Numbered from the stretch's first letter, positions 4,835-52,705 are shown. The stretch: 64,000 nucleotides of DNA from Armatimonadetes bacterium UBA1398 (GCA_002305165.1 DBQI01000065.1:16794-80793), one strand, 5' to 3'. Notes: generated from the letters alone by a model not told the origin. Program-made: numbers and translations.

Positions 4835-6043
4835 GTGCGTCGTTCTCTTCCCAACCTGGTTCGTGTGTTCGGGATTGTCTGGTGCGGTCTCACTCTTCTC
4901 TGCCATTCCGCATCGGCTGCGCCCGAGCCCGAGAAGCAGGATGTCACCCTCAACGAGGTCATCGCCAGCCCCTCCCACTACCGGGACGCCGATATGTCGC
5001 TTGAGGGACTGGTGGGCGATGCACGGCTTGCCCGGGGTCCCGAAGGTCGCACGTGTTCCTTCGCCCTGGTCAGTCCTAACAGCAATATGGGCCTCGCCAT
5101 ACTAGGCGCTGACGCGCCGGAAACAGGCCTGTACGTGCGTGTGGAGGGTCCTCTGCGGCTCGATCCGCGGCTGAACACCCCGTACATCGAGTCACCCCGG
5201 GTAACTGTCCTCCACGAGCTGCCCCTGTGGCTGCGTCCCGCTGACCATCAGAGCCTTGCCGCCCTCGGCGCCATCCTGTGCGCCATGGCCGCATGCCTTC
5301 TCCTCGTCAGCATCCGCCGACCCTCCAGCGTGGCGCCGTCTCCAGAGCGCTTCAGTGCTCTGATCTCGACCGCCGTCTTGCCTCCGCGCGCTGAGACCCC
5401 GGCCCCGGCGACCGTCGCCGAGTACGTCGCGCCCGCCCCGGACACCTCGATCGGTGACGAGGGTTGCGAGCCGGGAGCATCTGACGACGATACGCCACTA
5501 ACGGGGGAGACCGTGTCCTTGGATCCGGAAGCTCTGGTGGCCGGGTCCGAGGGGCCGGCTCCATCCGGTCCTGCGGAGGGCGTGCCGGCCCGGGAAACCT
5601 CGACCGGTGACGAGAGTCCTGAGCCGACAGCATCGAGCGATGCGGCGCCCACGGCGGAGGCCGAGTCCGAAGAGCCCCCGACTGTGCCCGATGGGGACGC
5701 GTCCGTACCCATCGTCGGTATGGTACTGGAGGTCGTCGCGGGACCCGACCGGGGCAGGGTTTTCGAGGCGCGTGGCCCTAGAGTCACGATCGGCCGTTCG
5801 GAGGATCGCGACGTGCCCTTGACCGACGAGTTGGTCGCGCGCCATCAGGCGACCCTTACGCGCTCCAATGGGGTGGTGCTGCTCAGCTCTGAGGTTCCGG
5901 GCGCCGTAGTGTGTCTCAACTCCCGCCCGGTGCGCCAAGCGGAGATCGCGGCCCATGATGTCATTCGCATGGGATGCTCCGAGCTGCGCCTGATCGCCTC
6001 GCCATCAGCAGCGGAGCTAGGCCCTTCGGTACCCGCGCAATGA
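4835..6043 (+). CDS. membrane-anchored FHA domain protein (signal peptide, periplasmic domain, TM helix, acidic/Pro-rich linker, C-terminal FHA)
   Basis: C-terminal FHA signature RVTIGRSEDRDVPLTDELVARHQATL...NSRPV; internal hydrophobic helix LAALGAILCAMAACLLLVSI; stop overlaps next start (ATGA). Confidence 0.65.
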   Translation: MRRSLPNLVRVFGIVWCGLTLLCHSASAAPEPEKQDVTLNEVIASPSHYRDADMSLEGLVGDARLARGPEGRTCSFALVSPNSNMGLAILGADAPETGLYVRVEGPLRLDPRLNTPYIESPRVTVLHELPLWLRPADHQSLAALGAILCAMAACLLLVSIRRPSSVAPSPERFSALISTAVLPPRAETPAPATVAEYVAPAPDTSIGDEGCEPGASDDDTPLTGETVSLDPEALVAGSEGPAPSGPAEGVPARETSTGDESPEPTASSDAAPTAEAESEEPPTVPDGDASVPIVGMVLEVVAGPDRGRVFEARGPRVTIGRSEDRDVPLTDELVARHQATLTRSNGVVLLSSEVPGAVVCLNSRPVRQAEIAAHDVIRMGCSELRLIASPSAAELGPSVPAQ

Positions 6044-7275
6044 GCGATGACGTCCAGACCACTCCCGCCGAGGTCCCTGCCCTACCTGCCACACGCCCGG
6101 TGCGCGTTGGGTGCGCGGCGGCGCAGCCGGATGGGCTTGACCCCTGCCAAGCCGCCGTCGTCTGCGAGTGTCCCGCCGGAGGCGAGGTCCACTACGCCGC
6201 TGCGGCCTGCGTCATCGATGGCTCCCTCTCCCAGTCCAGAGGTGACATCGCGGCCTCCCTAGTTGCAGACCAGCTTGAGTCGGCACTCCAGTCTGGGCGA
6301 GCCCCCACCATTGGGGCGGGATTGGTGATGGCTCTGCACGATGCCGCAGAGGCCTTGAAGCGCCGCGCTAAGCTGCCTCACGACCCCGCGGACCTGAAGT
6401 GCAGTGCTGGTGTCGCGGTGCTGGATGACGGCAACTGGACCTTCGTTGAGGTCGGCGGCGCCCATGTGTTCCTGGAGCGAGGCCGGGCCGTCGGTCCGGT
6501 CTTCCGACAGGGACAGGCTGCCGATCCTCCTCTAGGCGATGAGGACTCCGCGCCCAGAGTCACGACGGCACGCGCTCTCCCGGGTGATCAGGCGCTGCTG
6601 CTGGGTGGCTACACCGCGGGCAGTCTCGACCTCGCCCGAGCTGCCCAGTCTCTCCGAGCTGCGCCCGATCTTGGGGAGGGCTGCAAGGCACTCGCCCGGG
6701 AGGCCCTCTCGACCCACCACACACCCCAGGCTCTGGCGTCCATCGTCCTGGATCGTCGGCCGCGTCGAGCACGATCTGTCGTGTTCCCCCTGCTATTCTC
6801 ACTCGCTTTCGTGGTGGCGGCCCTCGGGTTCGCCTTCCTTGCCTGGACGGGAGGACCGACGAGACCGATCATCCCGCCCGAGGCGCGAAGTGCGAACCTG
6901 CTGCCCATCGCTGAGGAACCCCAAGGCGCCGGCGTCGATGTCGGCGGGGCTCCCGGCCTGGTGGATATCGATCTCCCCGACGTCGAGGCCGTGCCGCGCG
7001 ATTCAGGCCGCGTCAAGGTGATCGGCGAGCCCGGACTCTGTTTCGAGGTCCTCGACCTGGCAACGGGCGAGTCCGTGTTGGAGGGCGAGATCCGCGAGGG
7101 ACAGGACTCCTACATCAGCCAGGGCATTCCCGCTCCAGGTCAATACTCTGTGACGGTATGGGAGTCGGCAGAGAAGAAGGAGGCCCGCATGGAGGGGCTC
7201 GAGTTCCATCTGGAACGGGACGCAATCAGGATTGTCGATTCCCGCAGAGGACACGAGCACGAGCCAGCGCGATAG
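6040..7275 (+). CDS. PP2C-like (possibly degenerate) membrane protein with extracytoplasmic C-terminal domain
   Basis: Start set at ATG 6040 overlapping the FHA stop. N-terminal region shows PP2C-like blocks (HYAAAACVIDGSLSQSRGD, AGVAVLDDGNWTFVEVGGAHVF, GDQALLLGGYTAG); TM helix VVFPLLFSLAFVVAALGFAFLAW. Confidence 0.5.
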   Translation: MSDDVQTTPAEVPALPATRPVRVGCAAAQPDGLDPCQAAVVCECPAGGEVHYAAAACVIDGSLSQSRGDIAASLVADQLESALQSGRAPTIGAGLVMALHDAAEALKRRAKLPHDPADLKCSAGVAVLDDGNWTFVEVGGAHVFLERGRAVGPVFRQGQAADPPLGDEDSAPRVTTARALPGDQALLLGGYTAGSLDLARAAQSLRAAPDLGEGCKALAREALSTHHTPQALASIVLDRRPRRARSVVFPLLFSLAFVVAALGFAFLAWTGGPTRPIIPPEARSANLLPIAEEPQGAGVDVGGAPGLVDIDLPDVEAVPRDSGRVKVIGEPGLCFEVLDLATGESVLEGEIREGQDSYISQGIPAPGQYSVTVWESAEKKEARMEGLEFHLERDAIRIVDSRRGHEHEPAR

Positions 7276-43912: not shown

Positions 43913-46900
43913 TCAGTGCTCCACCGCGGGCCAGTAGCGCGCCTCGTCGAAGTGCGGGCTCTTCCCCTCGGTGTGGCAGGTGAGGCATGTCTCCACCGTG
44001 AGCGGTTCGAGGATCTCGTGCCCCGTCTCCGTGGGCGGCCCGACCCGGTGGCAGGCGACACAGGTCACGTCCGGCAGCCGAGCCGCCTCGGGAACCAGGG
44101 GCGCAGCGGAGTGGCAGCTCCAGCAGTCGGGGTCGAACTCGCGGTCGAGGTCTCGCAGGGTCTGGGCCGCCCGGGCATGGGAAGTCGCCTGCCACTGTTC
44201 GAGCTGCTCGGCATGGCATGCCCCGCAGGTCTCTGGCTGGGCGGACTCGTCCGTCGCGGCCGCGAGGATGAGGTCTCGCTGCCCGGCTTGAACTCGCTCC
44301 TGGTACTCGGCGATGAGGCCGGCAACCTCGGGGCTATCGAGGATCTGCTCGTCCATGGGGATGAGATGGGGCTCGGCCGCGATGGGTCGCCCCTCGCCAT
44401 CGAGCCGCAGGGTGATCCGCCCCACCCACTCGCCGTTACGCCCCGGGGCCACGATGTGGGTGTCCCCCACCCTGTCAGGCACCTGTAGCGACATCCCCTC
44501 ATGGCCGCACACGATCACATCGATGCCCGGCACATCCTCCGCGAGGCGTCGCGCGTCCTCCAGCATCCCGTGGAAGAGCACCACGATGACCGAAGCCGAT
44601 GGCTTCAGGGACGCGATCTCTCGGCGGGCCGCCTCGGTGGCATCGGTGATCTCGGCCCCCTTAGGCGCCGCCGTATCCCCGAAGGCGAAGACGCGGGGCG
44701 ACGTAACGGCGACGACACCGACGCGAACGCCGCGCCGCTCAATGAGCTTCGAGCGCGGCTCAGCGGAGCCCACGGCCACGTTGGCGGCCACATAGGGCAA
44801 AGGCGAGCCCTGGATCAAGGCCGCTAGCACGTCGACGCTGTAGGTGAAATCCTGGTCGCCGATGGCGATCGCGTCATACTCCATCGCCGCGTAAGCCCTC
44901 TGCAGGTACTCGAACTTGGTCCACTCAGGAGTCTCGGAGAACACGTCGCCGCTATCCACAAGGATGGAGGCGGGATACATGTCGCGCAGCTCGGCGAGGG
45001 CGCCCGCTTGCCGGCTCAACCCACCGTAAGGGTTGCCTGGGCAGCGGCAGGCCTCGAGCTGGCCGTTCGTGCTGCCGGTATAGAGGATCGTCAGCGAGGT
45101 GGGGGCCAAGCCGATGCGGTCGGCGACGGCGAGGGCCGCCTCCTGGCCGGCGATATCCGCGACTTCCCGGTTCTCGTAGAGGAGCAGACACTCGCCGTAC
45201 ACCCCAAGCTCAGCCTGAACCTGGGCGTCGGCGTAGAGGGCGTCCATCAGCGCCCTATCGCTCGTGGCCCTCTCGCGGATCTCATCGGGCTCCAGGCCCG
45301 CGCGGCGGAGGGGCACATCCCAGTAGCTGCTGTTCGCAGCCTCGATGCGGCTCCTGAGGTAGGTCGCCATGGCCTGACGGTGATCGCGCCAGATCACGGC
45401 TTGGCGGGCCGCCTCCTCAATCTCGGCAACCCCGCCCTGGGCCGCCAGGTTCCCCTCGGCCGTGATCGCCAGGGCCGGGTGAAGCTCCAGGGAGTAAGCG
45501 GCCCCCCCACCCGCGCGCTCGAGCAGCTCGAGCACCGTCGCGACCGACTCCTGAGCGGCTGCGTCGGAGCAGCGGTAGTAGATGTCCAGGCGGTCGGGTT
45601 GCCGCTCGCGACCGACCATGAGGCCGGACACGGTGTTCTCGGGCCGGACCATGTAGTGGGTCCCGGTCTTCACGAGGCCACTGACGATCTGGTCCAGGTT
45701 GGGTCTCTGCTCGAGCTGCTCCGCAGGCAGGAAGAAGGCCGGCAGCCACTGGACGCCGCCCAGCTCGGCGAGGGCCTGGCCCTCCTCGCTCGCATACGTG
45801 ACCTCCCGCGGCTGGAGGCCGGGGAGCAGGCCTCCAAGGTCGCTGACCAAGGCGCGGTGGCTGGTGAGCGAGGCGTCCTCGGAGCCCACGACGATCAGCT
45901 CCAGCGGCGTCGGGTCGGTGAACTCGCAGCGCGCGTCACCCGTGCCGGCGTCGCGGCAGTAGCCGAGCTGCCCTGGCCGGCGGCAGTCGCTGTGGGAGGC
46001 GCACTCGGGCACCCCCGCGCAGGCCTCGCCGCGGAGGGCCTCGGGTAGGGTCCAACAGAGCGTTCGCAGGAGCGCGGGAGTTGCGTTGGCGCTCTCGTAC
46101 TCGACGTTGTTGAGGTAGAGGGTCGGCGTTCCGGGGATCATGAACCGCCGCGCGCGATCCGCATGGGCCAGGAGCATGGTGGCCACCTCGTCGGAGCCCG
46201 CGAGTTCCATGACCGCTCCGGGATCGAGCCCCTGGGCCTGCAGCACGGTGTCCGCCTCGACGGACGGCTGGAGGGCACGGAGGGAGGCGTAGCGCGCGAC
46301 AGCATCCCGGCCGTAGAGGACCTGAATGGCGAGTTCGCGCCTCGCCTCGACGATCGCCGGGGGACCGAAGGTGGAGTAGAATTGACCCGCTTCGGCGTCG
46401 AAGTGAACCACATGCCAGCGCCGGAGCTCCACGCGCCCCTCGCCGAAGAGCCGCAGCGCCTCGCGCAGTTGGGGCTCCATCTCGACGCAGTAGCCGCAGC
46501 CCCACGCCGTGTAGTAGTCGAGCACGAGGCGCGGCGCGTCGATGGTGTCCTTGCGCTGCAGCCACTCCTCGACCCGCTGGGCCTGAGCGGGGTCATCGGG
46601 CACGCTCGGGTCGAGGGGAATCTCGCGGAGGCGGTACTCGGCCATCGCTCTGCCGTCGACCTTCAGATCGAGCTGCGATAGCGCTCGCGCCTCGAGGTTG
46701 AACTCCCCGATGAGAGCGTCGCCCACCCTATCGATCAGTCCCCCTGGGCGGCGGTAGTGAGCGTTGATGAAGATGTCCACGCCCGGCACGGACTCTGCGA
46801 GGAGTCGGGTCCGGTCACTGCCCAGATGGGAGAGCACGACGACGAGGTCGACCTGGTCTCTCATCTCCTGCACAACCCGTGACACGCCCTCTATCGGGTC

Positions 46901-47482
46901 ACCCACCTGGGCCCACAGGCCCTGGCGCGGATCGCCGAGGGCGTAGAGGTCCTGGGGCGTGGCCGCAGTGACGCCGATGCTGACGCCACCGACCTCGGTG
47001 ATGAGGTACCGCTCCACCCCGGAGGCGGCCGCCGGTTCCTCTCCCATGTTGGCGGAAAGGAAGGGCGCAGCGCCGATCTCAGCGGCCCGGCGCAGGAACT
47101 CGGGCCCCCACTGAAGCTCCTCATCGCCCACGGCGTAGGCTGCGTACCCCATGTCGGCGCAGGCCGCCAGATGGACCTCGGTCCGCTCTCGGTCGACGAC
47201 GGGCCCCTCCGTGTACTCGTCGTAGGCGGTTCCGCCGAACTGGCCTCCCGCGTCCAACACGAGGGTGGGAGTGAACCCGTCGCGCCTCACCCGGTCCAGC
47301 GCATGCGCGCGGCGGGCGATGCCTCCGTCCTTGCTCACCACACACTCGCACGGCGTGACCAGGGAGTGCGTCTCGCCCGTGTACACGATGGTGATGTCCT
47401 TGACCTCAGCAGTGGAGCGCACCGAGAGGGTTAGCAGGAGCAAGCAGAGCGCAGGTGGCAGCGCCGCGCGGGTACGACTCAT
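43913..47482 (-). CDS. secreted multidomain redox protein: two metallophosphatase-like domains, DsbA-like thioredoxin domain (CGYC), Cys-rich segment, C-terminal tetrahaem c-type cytochrome domain
   Basis: 1189 aa; signal peptide; calcineurin-like blocks (ITIVYTGETH...DVDLVVVLSHLG...VDIFINAH and LTILYTGSTNG...VIVVLFHG...IDVIVCGHEG); thioredoxin CxxC plus GTPTLYLNN; four CxxCH (CGACH, CWSCH, CVACH, CLTCH). Confidence 0.6.
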   Translation of the reverse strand: MSRTRAALPPALCLLLLTLSVRSTAEVKDITIVYTGETHSLVTPCECVVSKDGGIARRAHALDRVRRDGFTPTLVLDAGGQFGGTAYDEYTEGPVVDRERTEVHLAACADMGYAAYAVGDEELQWGPEFLRRAAEIGAAPFLSANMGEEPAAASGVERYLITEVGGVSIGVTAATPQDLYALGDPRQGLWAQVGDPIEGVSRVVQEMRDQVDLVVVLSHLGSDRTRLLAESVPGVDIFINAHYRRPGGLIDRVGDALIGEFNLEARALSQLDLKVDGRAMAEYRLREIPLDPSVPDDPAQAQRVEEWLQRKDTIDAPRLVLDYYTAWGCGYCVEMEPQLREALRLFGEGRVELRRWHVVHFDAEAGQFYSTFGPPAIVEARRELAIQVLYGRDAVARYASLRALQPSVEADTVLQAQGLDPGAVMELAGSDEVATMLLAHADRARRFMIPGTPTLYLNNVEYESANATPALLRTLCWTLPEALRGEACAGVPECASHSDCRRPGQLGYCRDAGTGDARCEFTDPTPLELIVVGSEDASLTSHRALVSDLGGLLPGLQPREVTYASEEGQALAELGGVQWLPAFFLPAEQLEQRPNLDQIVSGLVKTGTHYMVRPENTVSGLMVGRERQPDRLDIYYRCSDAAAQESVATVLELLERAGGGAAYSLELHPALAITAEGNLAAQGGVAEIEEAARQAVIWRDHRQAMATYLRSRIEAANSSYWDVPLRRAGLEPDEIRERATSDRALMDALYADAQVQAELGVYGECLLLYENREVADIAGQEAALAVADRIGLAPTSLTILYTGSTNGQLEACRCPGNPYGGLSRQAGALAELRDMYPASILVDSGDVFSETPEWTKFEYLQRAYAAMEYDAIAIGDQDFTYSVDVLAALIQGSPLPYVAANVAVGSAEPRSKLIERRGVRVGVVAVTSPRVFAFGDTAAPKGAEITDATEAARREIASLKPSASVIVVLFHGMLEDARRLAEDVPGIDVIVCGHEGMSLQVPDRVGDTHIVAPGRNGEWVGRITLRLDGEGRPIAAEPHLIPMDEQILDSPEVAGLIAEYQERVQAGQRDLILAAATDESAQPETCGACHAEQLEQWQATSHARAAQTLRDLDREFDPDCWSCHSAAPLVPEAARLPDVTCVACHRVGPPTETGHEILEPLTVETCLTCHTEGKSPHFDEARYWPAVEH

Positions 47483-47515: not shown

Positions 47516-48853
47516 TTATCGGGGATCCGCGCAGCAGCGGAACCCAACATGATCAGCGTTCAGGACCGGGTGCTTCGGTCCTCCTGTGGTGCAGTCGAAG
47601 CGGTCGAGCCTTTGGTCGCGGAAGGAGGCGCCCCGGTGATCGACGGTCGTCTCCTCCGACCCCCAGTTGCTGCCGATCCACTCGGCCACATTGCCGATCA
47701 TGTCGTAGAGCCCATAGCCGCTCACGCAGTAGGGGCGGGAACCCAGGCGCTCGGCATGGGCGTCCTCGCCCATCATGACGCCGATGTTGCAGGCGCCCAG
47801 CACCGGCCTGTTGCCGTAGGAGAACTGCAGGCCATCGGGCCCGCGGCACCCAGCCTCCCACTCGTCGGGCTCACAAAGCCGCTTGTCTTTCTGGCGGCAC
47901 CAGCCGGAGGCGCCGAACTGATTGATGTCAGCCATGGGCTTGGCCCCGGGAAGGTTCGGGGCCTCGAAGACGTCGATGCAGACACGGCCCTCGACCAGCC
48001 GCATCCCCGCTGGGCACCGAGGTTCGGGCGGCATGCTCTTCATGACCATCGCGTCACTGGGTTCGCCGCCGAGGAGCGTTGGGGTCTGCGCCTCGCCCCC
48101 GCCCCCTTGGTAGACCCGCTCGGCCGTCGATTTGGTGAAGCCAACCAGCTCCTTGACCGTCACGGTCGCATCGGGCGGATCCGTATCCGCGAAGCCCGTG
48201 ACGCAGTTCGTGAGGCAGAACCCGAGAAGGGGCCGAGCGAGGCCAGCCTCATTGAGCTTCTGCCCCGGCGAGACGGCGGATAGAACGAGGCTGCTCGCCG
48301 CCAGGGGTTCGAGCACATCGCCCGGCACGGCCAGGTCCTCGGGCGTCCCCTCGGCCCTGAAGGCATCCCACGGCGAGGCGTCGAGCATGACCAGCTTCTT
48401 GGTGGCGGGTATCGCGGCCACGTAGTCGGCAAGCTGCCGGACGGTGATGGCCGTGTTCGGCAGGTCCGCGAGGTCCGCGTTGTACGGGCAGAGGTACAGC
48501 TCAAGCTGCCCATCCTCCCCCACGGAGGCCACCAGGGTGAGGCAAAGGTAGATGAAAACCTCATCCTCAGCGGCCGCCGACTGGCAGAACTCCAGGGCGC
48601 CAACGAGGTTCGACAGGCTGGCCTGTCCGCCGGCGAGGGCCCCGACGCGATCCATGGGGACCGCGCCGATCTCGGGGTTCGCGAACCGTTCCGCGACGAG
48701 GAAGGCGTAGGTCTCGCCCTCGGTCCGGCCCGGGATGTTGAAGTCGCGGTACTCGTTCACCCCCGCACACACCGCAAACCGCTGGGCCTCCTGCCCGGTT
48801 GCCCCGGCGACGAGCGTTCCGAGTATGATGGGGAACAGCCATGCGCGACTCAT
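47516..48853 (-). CDS. secreted caspase-like (peptidase C14 fold) domain fused to FGE-sulfatase-fold domain
   Basis: Start at ATG 48853 (AGGAAGG RBS) giving signal peptide MSRAWLFPIILGTLVAGATG; caspase-like FAVCAGVNEY...KKLVMLDASPW; C-terminal FGE-like YDMIGNVAEW, HRGASF, VGFRCC. Confidence 0.55.
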   Translation of the reverse strand: MSRAWLFPIILGTLVAGATGQEAQRFAVCAGVNEYRDFNIPGRTEGETYAFLVAERFANPEIGAVPMDRVGALAGGQASLSNLVGALEFCQSAAAEDEVFIYLCLTLVASVGEDGQLELYLCPYNADLADLPNTAITVRQLADYVAAIPATKKLVMLDASPWDAFRAEGTPEDLAVPGDVLEPLAASSLVLSAVSPGQKLNEAGLARPLLGFCLTNCVTGFADTDPPDATVTVKELVGFTKSTAERVYQGGGGEAQTPTLLGGEPSDAMVMKSMPPEPRCPAGMRLVEGRVCIDVFEAPNLPGAKPMADINQFGASGWCRQKDKRLCEPDEWEAGCRGPDGLQFSYGNRPVLGACNIGVMMGEDAHAERLGSRPYCVSGYGLYDMIGNVAEWIGSNWGSEETTVDHRGASFRDQRLDRFDCTTGGPKHPVLNADHVGFRCCADPR

Positions 48854-48907
48854 CGGCCACTCACCTTCCTCGGACGGCGCACTGAAGGGCAACCGCCGCC
48901 CGAACGT

Positions 48908-49993: not shown

Positions 49994-50665
49994 ATGAACC
50001 GCTGGCTGATCGGATCCTTCGCCATCGTGGCACTGGCGCCCTCGGCGCTCGCCCAGGCCGAGCCCTTGCCCGATGTGCCCAGGGAGCACCCGGCGTCCTG
50101 GGCCGTCGCCACCCTCTGGCGCGCCGACGTGATCAGGGGCTCCAATGACGGGCTCTTCCACGGCGACGAGCGCATCAGCGAACTTGAGGCCATCGCCCTC
50201 GCCGCCCGGCTTAGCGCGGCGCTGAACAACGTGGCCGTCATCCGAGCCGACTGGTCGATGGACCGGTATCTGGCGCGGTTCTGGCATGAGGAGTACCCCG
50301 CTCGCGGCGGTGTGCCCTTGCCCGCGGGCCACTGGGCGGCCCTGGAGTGGAGCTACCTGGCGCGCATCACGCCGGCTGAGGTGGAGCTGCTCGACGCCTG
50401 GCCCGAACCGCTGCCGACCCGCTACGAAGCCGCCATCGCGGCGGCCACGGTGCTGCGCGAGGCGCGCAAGGCCATCCGCGGTCGGCTTGTGAGCGACTAC
50501 GCCGGGGGTATGCTGCCCGACTCCGCCGTCAATGACACCATGCCCATGGACTACGTGCCCTGGTCGGACCATGGCAGCGGCCACGGGCCAGATCACGGAC
50601 CGGCGGCGCCCATGCAGGGCGTCATACCGTTCGGTCCGCCCCCCTCTATGGCGGCCCCTGAGTAG
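49994..50665 (+). CDS. SLH (S-layer homology) domain protein
   Basis: Signal peptide MNRWLIGSFAIVALAPSALAQA; SLH-like DVPREHPASWAVATLWRADVIRGSNDGLFHGDERISELEAIALAARL. Confidence 0.55.
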   Translation: MNRWLIGSFAIVALAPSALAQAEPLPDVPREHPASWAVATLWRADVIRGSNDGLFHGDERISELEAIALAARLSAALNNVAVIRADWSMDRYLARFWHEEYPARGGVPLPAGHWAALEWSYLARITPAEVELLDAWPEPLPTRYEAAIAAATVLREARKAIRGRLVSDYAGGMLPDSAVNDTMPMDYVPWSDHGSGHGPDHGPAAPMQGVIPFGPPPSMAAPE

Positions 50666-51536
50666 CGTCCAGCAGGGCGATCAGCGCCTCCACAGGCACG
50701 CACTCCTTGACCACCATCTGCAGCCGACGCTCCTCCTCATCGGCGTAGAGCGCCTGTGTAACGGCCGCGACGCCCACCACCGCCCCGGTCTCATCGAGCA
50801 CGGGCGCGCCGCTGGAGCCTACGGCGTACTCGGCGGTGATGGACAGGGCGGGCCGTCCATCCCGGGCCCGTGCGTAGCGGCGGGAGAGGATGCCCTCGGT
50901 GAGCGTGTACGCCCGCTGCCTGGGGTGGCTGATGACCGCGACCGGGGCGCCCACGGGCGAGCCGGACTTGAGGGGGAGGGGCTCTGTGGCTGCCTCGATA
51001 CGAACCACCGCCAGGTCCGCCTCGGGGTCGCCGCCCTCGGCCCCAACCACGGAATACACCCGGCCATCCAGCGATGACGCGCCCAGGAGCTCATAGTCCG
51101 TCTCGAGGACGTGGTGGTTCGTCACGAGCAGGCCGTCGTCGGTGACGGCGAAGGCAGTCGCGATGCGCACATGCCACCGCTCGCAGTTGGGGCAGAGGTA
51201 CCGTCCGCCCAAGAGGTAGACGCTCGGAGCGCATCGGGCGTAGAGCTCCGGCAGGTCCAGGGACTCGTCCGTCGGCGCTGGAAGGCGCTCGACCGTCACG
51301 TGGCCCGACGCGCCAGCGAGGAGCTCCTCGCGACTCGCCCCGATCCCGCGCTCGGCCAAGGAGGCGAGCTCCCGACTCAGCCGCTCCTGGACCGCCACGT
51401 CCTCCACGTCCACCGGGTGCTGCAGGCAGAGGGTGTCCGCTGACAGCGGATCGGGGCACGGATGGCGAGGCAGAAGCGGCAGCGTGGCGAGGGCGCCGAG
51501 GACGAGGCCGAGCAGCGCCCCTAGCAGGAACCGCAC
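50646..51536 (-). CDS. trypsin-like serine protease (S1 family)
   Basis: Catalytic triad contexts TNHHV (His), DLAVVRI (Asp), GSSGAPV (Ser); start tentatively at GTG 51536 (AAGGGGG upstream) rather than track TTG 51575; 3' end overlaps SLH gene by 20 nt. Confidence 0.65.
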   Translation of the reverse strand: MRFLLGALLGLVLGALATLPLLPRHPCPDPLSADTLCLQHPVDVEDVAVQERLSRELASLAERGIGASREELLAGASGHVTVERLPAPTDESLDLPELYARCAPSVYLLGGRYLCPNCERWHVRIATAFAVTDDGLLVTNHHVLETDYELLGASSLDGRVYSVVGAEGGDPEADLAVVRIEAATEPLPLKSGSPVGAPVAVISHPRQRAYTLTEGILSRRYARARDGRPALSITAEYAVGSSGAPVLDETGAVVGVAAVTQALYADEEERRLQMVVKECVPVEALIALLDATQGPP

Positions 51537-51550
51537 TGGGTGCACCCCCT

Positions 51551-52705
51551 TCACGCGAGCTGCTGCTTCACCCAAGCCTCCAGGCCATTGGTGGACTCAG
51601 CGAAGCTCTCCGCCGTGGCGACGACCGCCGGGTGATCTCGGAAGGTCTCGGGGTCCTCCCCCTCCTCATAGCCCGCGCGGAAGTAGGGGACTCGGAGCAG
51701 GGTATCCAGGACCTCCTTCGGCACGGCTGCAGGCTGCGTGGGCAACTCCTCCCCGTCGTACTCCTCCAGCCAGGATTCGATGATGTTCGGGAAGATGGTC
51801 AGCACCACGGGCTGGGCGCAGATCTTCTCCAGGTGCCAGATCCTGACCCGACCGTCTACCACGGGTCCCACGCGCATCGAGGCGGCGAGCATCTTGCTCT
51901 CGTAACCCCGCTCGGCGTAGAGGGCGACGGCCTTGTTGAAGATCGCGGGGCCGGACCAGCGGCGGAGCTCATCGGTCAGCTCGACCCCGACGGACCGCGC
52001 GGACTCATCGAAGGCCGGATGGTCCTCGAACCGCCCCAGCATCATCGTGCAGACGGAGCGCCATCCCGAGAGGTCCACCCCCGCCTGTCGCGCGAGGGCC
52101 AAGCCCGTCTTGACCGCCTCCGCCACGGCGACGATCTGGCTGATGGTGAAGACGAGGGTCGCGTTGGTGGGGATGCCGAGAGCCGTGAGGAGGGTGATGC
52201 CATGGATGCCCTCCTTGACGCCAGGCATCTTGATCATCACGTTCGGGCTCATGGCATGGAGGCCGATGCCCATGGAGACCATCGCCGCCGTGCTCTTGAG
52301 CTCACGCGGATCGACTTGGCCGGACAGGTAGCCCAGGGCCTTCCCCGAGTTCTCGTAGATCCCTCTGAAGCGCTCGGCGCCCTCCCTCACCACGCTCTCG
52401 TAGAGCTTCCACATGGCCTCGGCTGGATCGGAGGCCTGGCCGCCCGTCATCTCCCGCAACCTGGCCGCCCATCGGCTCGGGTCGTACTCCACCGCCTGGG
52501 CGGTCAAGGGCGGGTTGGTCGTGCAGCCCACCAGTACCTCCTCCACCCCCTCGAGCCGCTCGCTGCAGCGGTCAGCGTCGGTCCGCCCCTCGTGGGCGGC
52601 GATGACCTCGGACTTCCACGCGTCAAGGATCAGCGGCGAGGAGTCGAACCAGACCTCGAGCTCGGGATGGGTGGCGGCTAGCGCGGCCAGCGGGTTGGTT
52701 GCCAT
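51551..52705 (-). CDS. tal: transaldolase
   Basis: 384 aa; VGCTTNPPL (transaldolase TTNP motif) and Schiff-base Lys region MIKMPGV. Confidence 0.7.
   Translation of the reverse strand: MATNPLAALAATHPELEVWFDSSPLILDAWKSEVIAAHEGRTDADRCSERLEGVEEVLVGCTTNPPLTAQAVEYDPSRWAARLREMTGGQASDPAEAMWKLYESVVREGAERFRGIYENSGKALGYLSGQVDPRELKSTAAMVSMGIGLHAMSPNVMIKMPGVKEGIHGITLLTALGIPTNATLVFTISQIVAVAEAVKTGLALARQAGVDLSGWRSVCTMMLGRFEDHPAFDESARSVGVELTDELRRWSGPAIFNKAVALYAERGYESKMLAASMRVGPVVDGRVRIWHLEKICAQPVVLTIFPNIIESWLEEYDGEELPTQPAAVPKEVLDTLLRVPYFRAGYEEGEDPETFRDHPAVVATAESFAESTNGLEAWVKQQLA

Follow-up and report, generated by a model that had tools for sequence, protein, structure and literature searches.

The window analysed here is a stretch of 64,000 nucleotides from Armatimonadetes bacterium UBA1398 (GCA_002305165.1 DBQI01000065.1:16794-80793), and the subject of this study is a single long gene on its minus strand (43913..47482, with the stop codon at 43913–43915) and the two Cys-x-Cys (CxC) pairs of the 1189-aa multidomain protein that it encodes. 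The protein is predicted to be exported, because the attachment of c-type haem needs export; by eye, aa 1–25 (MSRTRAALPPALCLLLLTLSVRSTA; 47408..47482, minus) resemble a signal peptide, being basic in the n-region, hydrophobic in the core, and A-x-A-like at the end. Downstream of this putative signal lie, all on the minus strand, a first UshA-like degenerate calcineurin-fold domain (D1, aa 27–314; 46541..47404), a DsbA-like thioredoxin-fold domain (46046..46528) with the motif C329-G-Y-C332 (46487-46498), a Cys-rich linker and a second thioredoxin-like region, a second UshA-like degenerate calcineurin-fold domain (D2, aa 794–1070; 44273..45103), and a tetrahaem cytochrome c554-like tail (aa 1080–1189; 43916..44245) with CXXCH motifs at aa 1086, 1120, 1141, and 1166. 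Full-length orthologs share 54–99% identity with the protein, and members of its clusters at ≥90% identity are annotated as metagenome-assembled genomes (MAGs) of Armatimonadota or candidate division WS1.

The domain assignments draw on sequence profiles and on structures predicted with AlphaFold2. The calcineurin-like fold was recovered by the match of D1 to the 5'-nucleotidase structure 2z1a (phmmer, E = 3e-15), by the match of the family profile to CD73 (E = 1e-31), and by the model of aa 792–1189 (mean predicted local distance difference test [pLDDT] 84.7, predicted template modelling score [pTM] 0.83), which Foldseek placed with the 5'-nucleotidase N-domains (E = 2e-24, root-mean-square deviation ~3 Å, template modelling score [TM] normalized to the query 0.61). 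D1 and D2 are 30% identical to each other (BLASTP, E = 4e-29). In the model of aa 305–795 (pLDDT 86.8), the best Foldseek matches were GILT and DsbA (TM to target 0.6–0.73), and the middle domain has a thioredoxin fold with a helical insert and a CxxC that opens helix alpha1; the Pfam DSBA model scored 20.1 bits on it, under the cutoff of 25.6. The equivalent of C329-G-Y-C332 in relatives is CPHC (e.g., P0006), CIHC, or CPFC. The tail passed the cutoff of Pfam PF13435 (Cytochrome_C554; 29.2 bits, cutoff 20.8) and matched the c554 structure 1bvb (E = 5e-5).

Among its 25 Cys residues, the protein has exactly two C-x-C motifs. The D1 pair, C45-E-C47 (47342..47350, minus), closes the segment IVYTGETHSLVTPCEC (aa 32–47, window 47342-47389), and the D2 pair, C812-R-C814 (45041..45049, minus), lies within ILYTGSTNGQLEACRCPG (aa 799–816, window 45035-45088). 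About 0.5 C-x-C motifs are expected by chance in a protein with 25 Cys, so two are unremarkable by count alone; their significance comes from their common column in both domains, their conservation in orthologs, and their invariance in the 124 CxC-class domains of the family described below. In the alignment of D1 with D2, the two pairs stand in register in one column, and the D1 pair is kept in all orthologs with D1, including the distant P0011, as is the D2 pair in all ten orthologs with D2. Each pair lies 6 and 8 residues after the position of the canonical D-x-H motif and just ahead of the conserved GG(L/I)(S/A)R at the start of helix alpha1. In the AlphaFold2 model of D2, the pair is in coil between the strand at 5–11 and the helix at 31–44 (model numbering). 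The distance from the His position of D-x-H to GG is 14 residues in both D1 and D2, against 12–21 in canonical enzymes, and because this length is within the canonical range, we regard the pair as a substitution in the existing beta1–alpha1 loop.

The two-metal centre of the metallophosphatases is described by seven residues, in order Asp and His, the bridging Asp, Asn, the catalytic His, and two more His; their columns were computed from alignments, and the numbering is that of the E. coli and CD73 ligands. In these columns the residues are E, H, G, D, E, H, H in D1 and S, N, D, D, Q, H, H in D2, so that each keeps three of seven, and the equivalent of Gln254 is R in D1 and G in D2. The D-x-H column corresponds to E37-T-H39 in D1 (47366..47374, minus) and to S804-T-N806 in D2, a placement on which alignments to the Thermus enzyme 2z1a, to CD73, to snake-venom enzymes, and to canonical relatives agreed, as did the alignment of the family profile to CD73. 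In motif II of D1 (LDAGGQFGG, aa 76–84; 47231..47257, minus) the bridging Asp has become G80, whereas motif II of D2 retains the Asp (DSGDVF). The C-terminal nucleotide-binding domain, 5_nucleotid_C (PF02872), had no match on the protein or on any of the 96 CxC-domain relatives scanned, and the Pfam Metallophos model likewise failed to match the protein. The protein departs from the 5'-nucleotidase/UshA metallophosphatases in keeping only three of the seven residues per domain and in lacking PF02872.

These results bear on a first-pass annotation of this DNA, which had quoted the strings IVYTGETHSLVTPCEC, ILYTGSTNGQLEACRCPG, and LDAGGQFGG, all present exactly in the protein, and had noted altered motif residues in both domains, suggesting that these are not standard metallophosphatases. 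The degenerate ligands, the absence of 5_nucleotid_C, and the silence of the Metallophos model bear out that suggestion. Its placement of the Cys pairs needs correction, because they do not replace D-x-H, which is aligned 6 and 8 residues before them, and are not an insertion, the loop being of canonical length; its reading of a GD-to-GG change in motif II applies to D1 and fails for D2. The annotation had also weighed its idea against the prospect of seven intact ligands and a pair in a variable loop: the ligands are not intact, so the idea is not refuted, and the loop is variable in canonical enzymes but invariant in this family.

A phosphoesterase or nucleotidase might nevertheless persist if the Glu for Asp and Asp for Asn replacements still bound two metals and a phosphate or sulfate ester were cut, with the Cys pair as a redox switch. 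The clear homology to 5'-nucleotidases (E = 1e-15 to 1e-31) with a matching fold, the three residues left per domain, and a Joint Genome Institute label on cluster members (2',3'-cyclic-nucleotide 2'-phosphodiesterase) speak for such an activity, but D1 has Gly in place of the bridging Asp, D2 has lost both site-1 ligands, Glu (D1) or Gln (D2) stands where GNHE has its catalytic His, the Metallophos model is silent here, and the substrate-binding 5_nucleotid_C domain is missing here and in 96 of 96 scanned relatives. We therefore consider it highly improbable.

The whole protein scored 302.2 bits against NCBIfam NF041198, "UshA-like (seleno)protein" (UshA_like_PCGU), above the curated cutoff of 275. 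This profile has 519 positions, with the UshA-like domain at 8–269 and the multihaem tail at 353–517; scored separately, D1 gave 121 bits, D2 111.5 bits, and the cytochrome tail 86.8 bits, the last aligning with positions 353–517. A single module of D2 and tail scored 190.9 bits, under the cutoff, which indicates that the protein is a divergent duplicated relative that crosses 275 by summation. The family motif, C-x-U/C after strand beta1 followed by GGLSRR, is found in TPCECVVSKDGGIARR and EACRCPGNPYGGLSRQ, and the four CXXCH motifs that follow the UshA-like domain in the family are found after D2, whereas D1 precedes the DsbA-like domain instead. Two other families were rejected: NF049981 (UshA-like selenoprotein family 2, CxxU), with 91.5 bits for the whole protein and ~50 per domain against a cutoff of 140, and with CxC as the spacing in our protein; and SoxB (TIGR04486), with 118 bits for the whole protein and ~62–64 per domain against a cutoff of 550. 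NF041198 corresponds to the selenoprotein family "COG0737 UshA-like, CxU" of Zhang & Gladyshev 2008, for which 76 selenoproteins and 92 Cys homologs were counted in the Global Ocean Sampling (GOS) data (PMC2398784). The family was listed again in reviews of 2022 (PMC9312934) and 2026 (PMC13188914), and none of these three catalogues assigns a function to it; it is not mentioned in the 2007 Olavius paper.

The second Cys of each pair occupies the position of selenocysteine (Sec) in relatives of the protein. The database entries of two of these, P0020 and P0022, start at "MGGLSR...", which suggests that the gene callers probably restarted past a stop codon, and their contigs can be read through an in-frame TGA as LVYTGSVHGEIEPCG*PKNPMGGLSR and LVYTQAVGGDIEPCG*PRHPMGGLSRR. 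In-frame TGA codons are also present in D2-type relatives with 35–37% identity from a marine MAG (L011) and a Zixibacteria MAG (L012), which read LTVLYTGNTNGQLESCD*PGNPFGGLPRR and LTVLYTGNTNGQLEVCT*PGNPFGGLPRR, and in each of which four CXXCH motifs then follow. Immediately around the TGA, the four contigs read EPCG*PKNPMGGLSR, EPCG*PRHPMGGLSRR, ESCD*PGNPFGGLPRR, and EVCT*PGNPFGGLPRR. The TGA thus falls in the column of C814 and C47 at four independent loci (L001, L002, L011, and L012), with the frame conserved on both sides. According to Fomenko et al. 2007, as cited in PMC9312934, a Cys aligned with Sec is the mark of a catalytic redox Cys. In all four Sec-form loci (L011:6058-6100, L012:6055-6097, L001:2986-3028, and L002:109-151), a hairpin with a 5-bp stem and a GGUYU apical loop can form from 14 nt past the UGA, overlapping the conserved Gly-Gly-Leu codons; it is a candidate for, and consistent with, a bacterial Sec insertion sequence (SECIS) element, the loop of which the protein motif would fix. 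When the regions behind the TGA of L001 and L002 were folded singly, neither reached significance (z = -0.4 and -1.2), and the shared hairpin emerged only from the comparison of all four loci.

The alignment with Sec, together with the four-haem tails described below (56 of 120 proteins by motif, 48 of 96 by Pfam), agrees with the proposal of the first-pass annotation that the pairs form a redox-type site linked to the haems. Its other suggestion, that the domains may be non-catalytic, is unlikely, because organisms do not spend Sec on inert positions. The same evidence bears on the possibility that the pairs are structural disulfides that steady the beta1–alpha1 loop of inert binding or spacer modules. 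The degenerate catalytic residues would fit such a scaffold, and a Cys at this place can be structural, since the family profile aligns the second Cys with Cys51 of CD73. Vertebrate CD73 presumably has a C51–C57 disulfide with this effect in the equivalent loop, a location on which our literature search found nothing. Against this stand the Sec in that place in four relatives and in 76 of 168 GOS sequences, the invariance of the pair while its surroundings drift, and the co-occurrence of redox partners. We know of no Sec in a structural bond, and disulfides between residues i and i+2 are strained and typically reactive (e.g., the shuttle motifs CGC in Erv2 and CPC in Mia40). A purely structural role is thus quite improbable.

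To place the two domains in the wider family, a profile was built from nine CxC-type domains and searched over 50%-identity cluster representatives, of which 30,065 matched at E ≤ 1e-3 and 3,567 at E ≤ 1e-30. The survey set consisted of the 202 domains in the best 150 proteins, aligned to the CxC profile. None of the 124 CxC domains kept more than four of the seven canonical residues (none kept, 18 domains; one, 51; two, 17; three, 31; four, 7), whereas of the 34 aligned domains without CxC, 32 kept all seven and two kept six. A CxC pair and a complete two-metal site therefore exclude each other across the family. Most CxC domains (96 of 124) belong to a CGC subfamily that has lost nearly all ligands. 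A D2-type subfamily (20 of 124), which includes D2 of the window protein and the Elusimicrobia forms, shows the signature [SN]xN..CxC..D..DQ[DE]..H..HxQ, as do the Sec forms L011 and L012, which are outside the survey set. Only the two Cys, GG, and a few structural residues are invariant family-wide, and because these include no His and no further Cys, the family as a whole has no four-ligand metal or cluster site.

The D2-type signature brings in a different interpretation, a hybrid metal–thiolate site in which one metal would be held by D846, D876, H971, and H994 in D2 and by residues of the E37/H39/D120 type in D1, with the Cys pair supplying or gating ligands. The substrate of such a metal–sulfur or metal–selenium centre would be a small molecule, for example a persulfide or an oxyanion of sulfur, selenium, or arsenic, and the haems would give or take electrons. 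It is suggested by the strict retention of the signature in the D2-type subfamily, by the presence of the D, D, H, H set in the Sec forms L011 and L012 as well, by the conservation of E37, H39, D120, E121, and E122 of D1 in all orthologs, including the 29%-identical P0011, and by the homology of the family to SoxB, a superfamily member that acts on sulfur. The CGC domains, however, are nearly ligand-free (69 of the 124 CxC domains keep none or one of the seven residues) and yet hold the pair and the haem tail, which implies that a metal is unnecessary for the core chemistry of the family; moreover, the recurrent partners of CxC domains are thiol–disulfide oxidoreductase folds, and no small-molecule handling proteins are found among them. 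We consider a hybrid site unlikely.

The partners of CxC domains were counted in 120 CxC proteins by motif and in 96 by Pfam. By motif, 56 had exactly four CXXCH and 53 had none, and two CxC domains occurred in only four proteins, the window protein and representatives of three other clusters. By Pfam, 48 of the 96 carried Cytochrome_C554, five AhpC-TSA, Redoxin, or Thioredoxin_8, two DSBA, two Thioredoxin, and six Metallophos, which puts the proteins with a thioredoxin-fold family at about 8–10. The only recurrent partners of CxC domains are four-haem cytochrome and thioredoxin-fold domains. In Elusimicrobia relatives, a TlpA-type WCxxC thioredoxin is fused directly upstream of an SCNC domain; five such MAG loci (L013–L017, host open reading frames [ORFs] at ~5458-6792) encode 444-aa proteins composed of a TlpA/ResA-type thioredoxin (FFGTWCxSC) and a D2-type SCNC domain, with no haems.

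In the tail of the window protein, the four CXXCH motifs are matched by only about three conserved His (H1102, H1189, and an H1155-equivalent) that are candidates for distal ligands, so one haem may be five-coordinate or have a non-His ligand. One of the haems in cytochrome c554 itself is five-coordinate. The loop Cys or Sec could, in principle, be the distal ligand of such a haem, as in SoxAX, TsdA, or DsrJ. The shortfall of His relative to haems, the fixed orientation of D2 and cytochrome that the pTM of 0.83 suggests for the model, and the fusion of the CxC domain to a haem tail in about half of the family would suit that role. Against it stand the 53 of 120 CxC proteins, and D1 here, that keep the pair with no adjacent haem domain, and the missing His needs no special cause given the five-coordinate haem of c554; we see very little likelihood in it.

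We favour the interpretation that the CxC domains are a redox-active dithiol on a dead phosphatase scaffold that relays electrons between the DsbA-like domain and the haems, which we consider probable. It is based on the alignment of Cys with Sec, the loss of the metal site, the absence of a nucleotide-binding domain, the lack of any further invariant His or Cys, and the association with haem and thiol-oxidoreductase partners; of these elements, direct observation here covers the fold, the missing ligands, the equivalence to Sec, the exclusion between CxC and the metal site, and the recurrence of the two kinds of partner. Both D1 and D2 would be 5'-nucleotidase N-domains that have lost the two-metal centre and the nucleotide-binding C-terminal domain and have acquired, in the beta1–alpha1 loop where the former active site opens, the Cys form of a Cys-x-Sec motif. 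C47 and C814 would be the attacking residues and the first Cys of each pair the resolving one, with the pair probably cycling between dithiol and disulfide (selenosulfide in relatives). On one side, the CxC pairs would exchange with the fused CGYC domain and through it with the thiols or disulfides of an envelope substrate, although the order of the relay and the substrate are conjectural; on the other, they would exchange with the c554-like tail, linking the protein to soluble or membrane redox carriers, with electrons possibly flowing in either direction. Partners of the DsbA type suggest oxidation, and those of the TlpA type suggest reduction. A more specific proposal, which we put forward tentatively and with considerable doubt, is that the protein acts as a "disulfide-to-haem wire" of the envelope, in which the CxC relay re-oxidizes or re-reduces the fused DsbA-like domain and passes electrons to or from the four-haem cytochrome.

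Several points weigh against the dithiol interpretation. D846, D876, H971, and H994, which represent the old metal site 2 with Asn changed to Asp, are strictly kept in D2 and in its subfamily (20 of 124 domains), and in D1, E37, H39, and D120 are kept in all orthologs and H219 and H242 in most, so that, judged from the sequences, a metal, perhaps the different one that the first-pass annotation had considered, could be bound beside the Cys pair in the window protein. The CxC loop was modelled at only moderate confidence (pLDDT ~75). The occurrence of the pair in 124 of 124 domains is partly circular, because the top-150 set was picked by a profile derived from CxC domains, whereas the contrast with the non-CxC domains is not. 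The pairing of the SECIS-like hairpin holds in 20 of 20 cells (against 30–50% with the partner columns slid), with one C-G/G-C swap between lineages, but is not significant with four sequences, since 83 of 500 shuffles match it. Literature searches on UshA-like selenoproteins and on selenoproteins combined with multihaem and nucleotidase terms returned catalogue entries only and no functional work, and the gene neighbourhoods described below suggest a setting of envelope biogenesis and proteases but identify no substrate.

Between the DsbA-like domain and D2, the protein contains two further elements. The Cys-rich linker (aa 476–519; 45926..46057, minus) has Cys at 476, 488, 494, 500, 509, and 519, none of which varies in the 11 sequences aligned, among them the Planctomycetota protein P0011 at 29% identity; AlphaFold2 predicted a small beta-hairpin element, and the segment resembles a compact module rich in disulfides that separates the DsbA-like domain from the next. 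The next region (aa 527–790; 45113..45904, minus) appears, from the order of its predicted secondary structures and Foldseek matches to thioredoxin folds and UGGT, to be an alpha/beta domain with a second DsbA-like fold that has no CxxC. A vestigial C638 is left in it, only in the closest orthologs, and this second fold, assigned from our reading of the modelled topology, may be an inactive copy of the first DsbA-like domain. In the ortholog cluster representative P0066 (residues ~334–342), the active site of the first DsbA-like domain is CPYG, the second Cys being gone, and this lineage may work with a single-Cys thioredoxin fold.

The complete tandem architecture was found only in MAGs of Armatimonadia in a genome scan with a tight D2 alignment, which recovered 12 loci and covers D2-type relatives in the named genomes, the CGC subfamily being outside its reach. 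The near-identical proteins of the cluster P0052 and P0055–P0057 carry conflicting public labels ("multiheme c-type cytochrome", "hypothetical protein", and [quoted passage not shown]). The degenerate catalytic residues make it very likely that the last label is wrong, as are nucleotidase-type labels on such proteins in general. Across the window (1–64000), the GC content is 63–73%, and the 64 kb contain no tRNA genes detected by ARAGORN and no Rfam family at the gathering threshold.

The nearest neighbour of the gene, 33 bp upstream on the same strand (47516..48892, minus), encodes a 458-aa protein with a Pfam FGE-sulfatase match (4.5e-14), a weak caspase-like N-terminus (NF047832, E = 1e-4), and a C-terminus resembling formylglycine-generating enzyme (FGE) or its paralog pFGE. 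It is kept beside the Armatimonadia orthologs (L003 and L004/L005; 57–60% identity), and the two genes likely form a two-gene unit; their products may be functionally linked. The idea that the 458-aa protein is a true FGE that needs a reductant was rejected, because its nearest structure is the inactive pFGE/SUMF2 and the catalytic Cys pair of FGE is unaligned. A Trypsin_2 peptidase gene (window 50646-51575, minus) lies ~3 kb from the giant gene, and a similar one lies beside an Elusimicrobia relative (L015:6864-7865, minus); this may be a coincidence or may reflect a context of envelope protein quality control.

Elsewhere, thioredoxin-fold genes adjoin relatives: a thioredoxin gene follows the relative at L007 immediately, with adjoining coordinates, and an AhpC-TSA/Redoxin gene precedes the one at L018. 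Other neighbours were TamB, Omp85/TamA, CsgG/LpoB-like lipoproteins, an S41 protease with PDZ, a trypsin-like peptidase, and ABC-2/GldG-type transporters. The ORFs of L013–L017 are flanked by CsgG/LpoB-like lipoproteins with Kelch or RCC1 propellers. At L011 (1-5780), genes for TamB and an Omp85/POTRA (TamA-like) protein directly precede the Sec-form gene; at L012 (3-5536), the Omp85/POTRA gene was confirmed, and an unscanned ORF of matching size (~1220 aa) occupies the place of TamB. These upstream genes represent a context of outer-membrane assembly. No respiratory genes were found among the examined neighbours of the relatives, and beyond the thioredoxin-fold, envelope, and protease genes, no single operon was conserved.

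The UshA-like CxU/CxC family is widespread and has stood in selenoprotein catalogues for nearly two decades with no proposed function. The mutual exclusion of CxC and the two-metal site means that the chemistry of the fold has changed, and the pattern of partners points to thiol- or selenol-to-haem electron transfer in the cell envelope. If the proposed disulfide-to-haem wire exists, thiol–disulfide chemistry would be coupled directly to c-type cytochromes independently of DsbB, VKOR, or DsbD, and a first function would be available for an orphan selenoprotein family catalogued since 2008. The family and its motif are not new; what is new is a rare variant in tandem, fused to a DsbA-like domain and with Cys throughout, which was found only in Armatimonadia. 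With two CxC domains, a DsbA-like CxxC, and four haems on one polypeptide, and Cys in place of Sec, the window protein is a convenient biochemical test case, for which selenoprotein expression is not needed.

With the NF041198 family, the window protein shares the degenerate N-domain of 5'-nucleotidase type, the (P)C-x-C/U in the equivalent loop followed by GGLSRR, and the C-terminal four-haem c554-like tail, D2 and the tail matching profile positions 21–269 and 353–517. It differs in being a Cys form with E or R instead of G as the middle residue of the pair, in its D2 belonging to the subfamily that holds the site-2 ligand set, and in its additional second CxC domain, DsbA-like CGYC domain, six-Cys linker, and apparently inactive DsbA-like fold, with the tandem CxC layout common to only three other 50%-identity clusters. 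With the 5'-nucleotidases, UshA, and CD73 (COG0737), it shares a homologous N-domain and a motif scaffold in equal order, whereas its domains retain only three of the seven residues, lack 5_nucleotid_C, have an invariant Cys pair in the beta1–alpha1 loop, and are fused to haem and thioredoxin-fold domains.

SoxB (TIGR04486) belongs to the same superfamily and has detectable homology to D1 and D2 (118 bits over the whole protein). It is a periplasmic protein that acts on protein-bound sulfur species alongside c-type cytochromes and has an intact two-manganese centre; unlike the window protein, it has no CxC motif and is not fused to haems. The closest functional parallels may be the C-terminal CGC of Erv2, the CPC of Mia40, and the DsbA–DsbB pair, in which i/i+2 dithiols pass electrons between the dithiol of a thioredoxin fold or substrate and a cofactor that is not a thiol. 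The likeness would be one of analogy, in that the window protein fuses a DsbA-like CxxC to a putative relay; the folds are unrelated, and the terminal cofactor here would be a c-type haem, not flavin adenine dinucleotide or quinone. Cytochrome c554 of Nitrosomonas europaea, finally, resembles the tail in its four CXXCH motifs, in the PF13435 match above the cutoff, and in the match to 1bvb, but the tail is a fused domain with which only the N-terminal ~100 of the 211 residues of c554 align.

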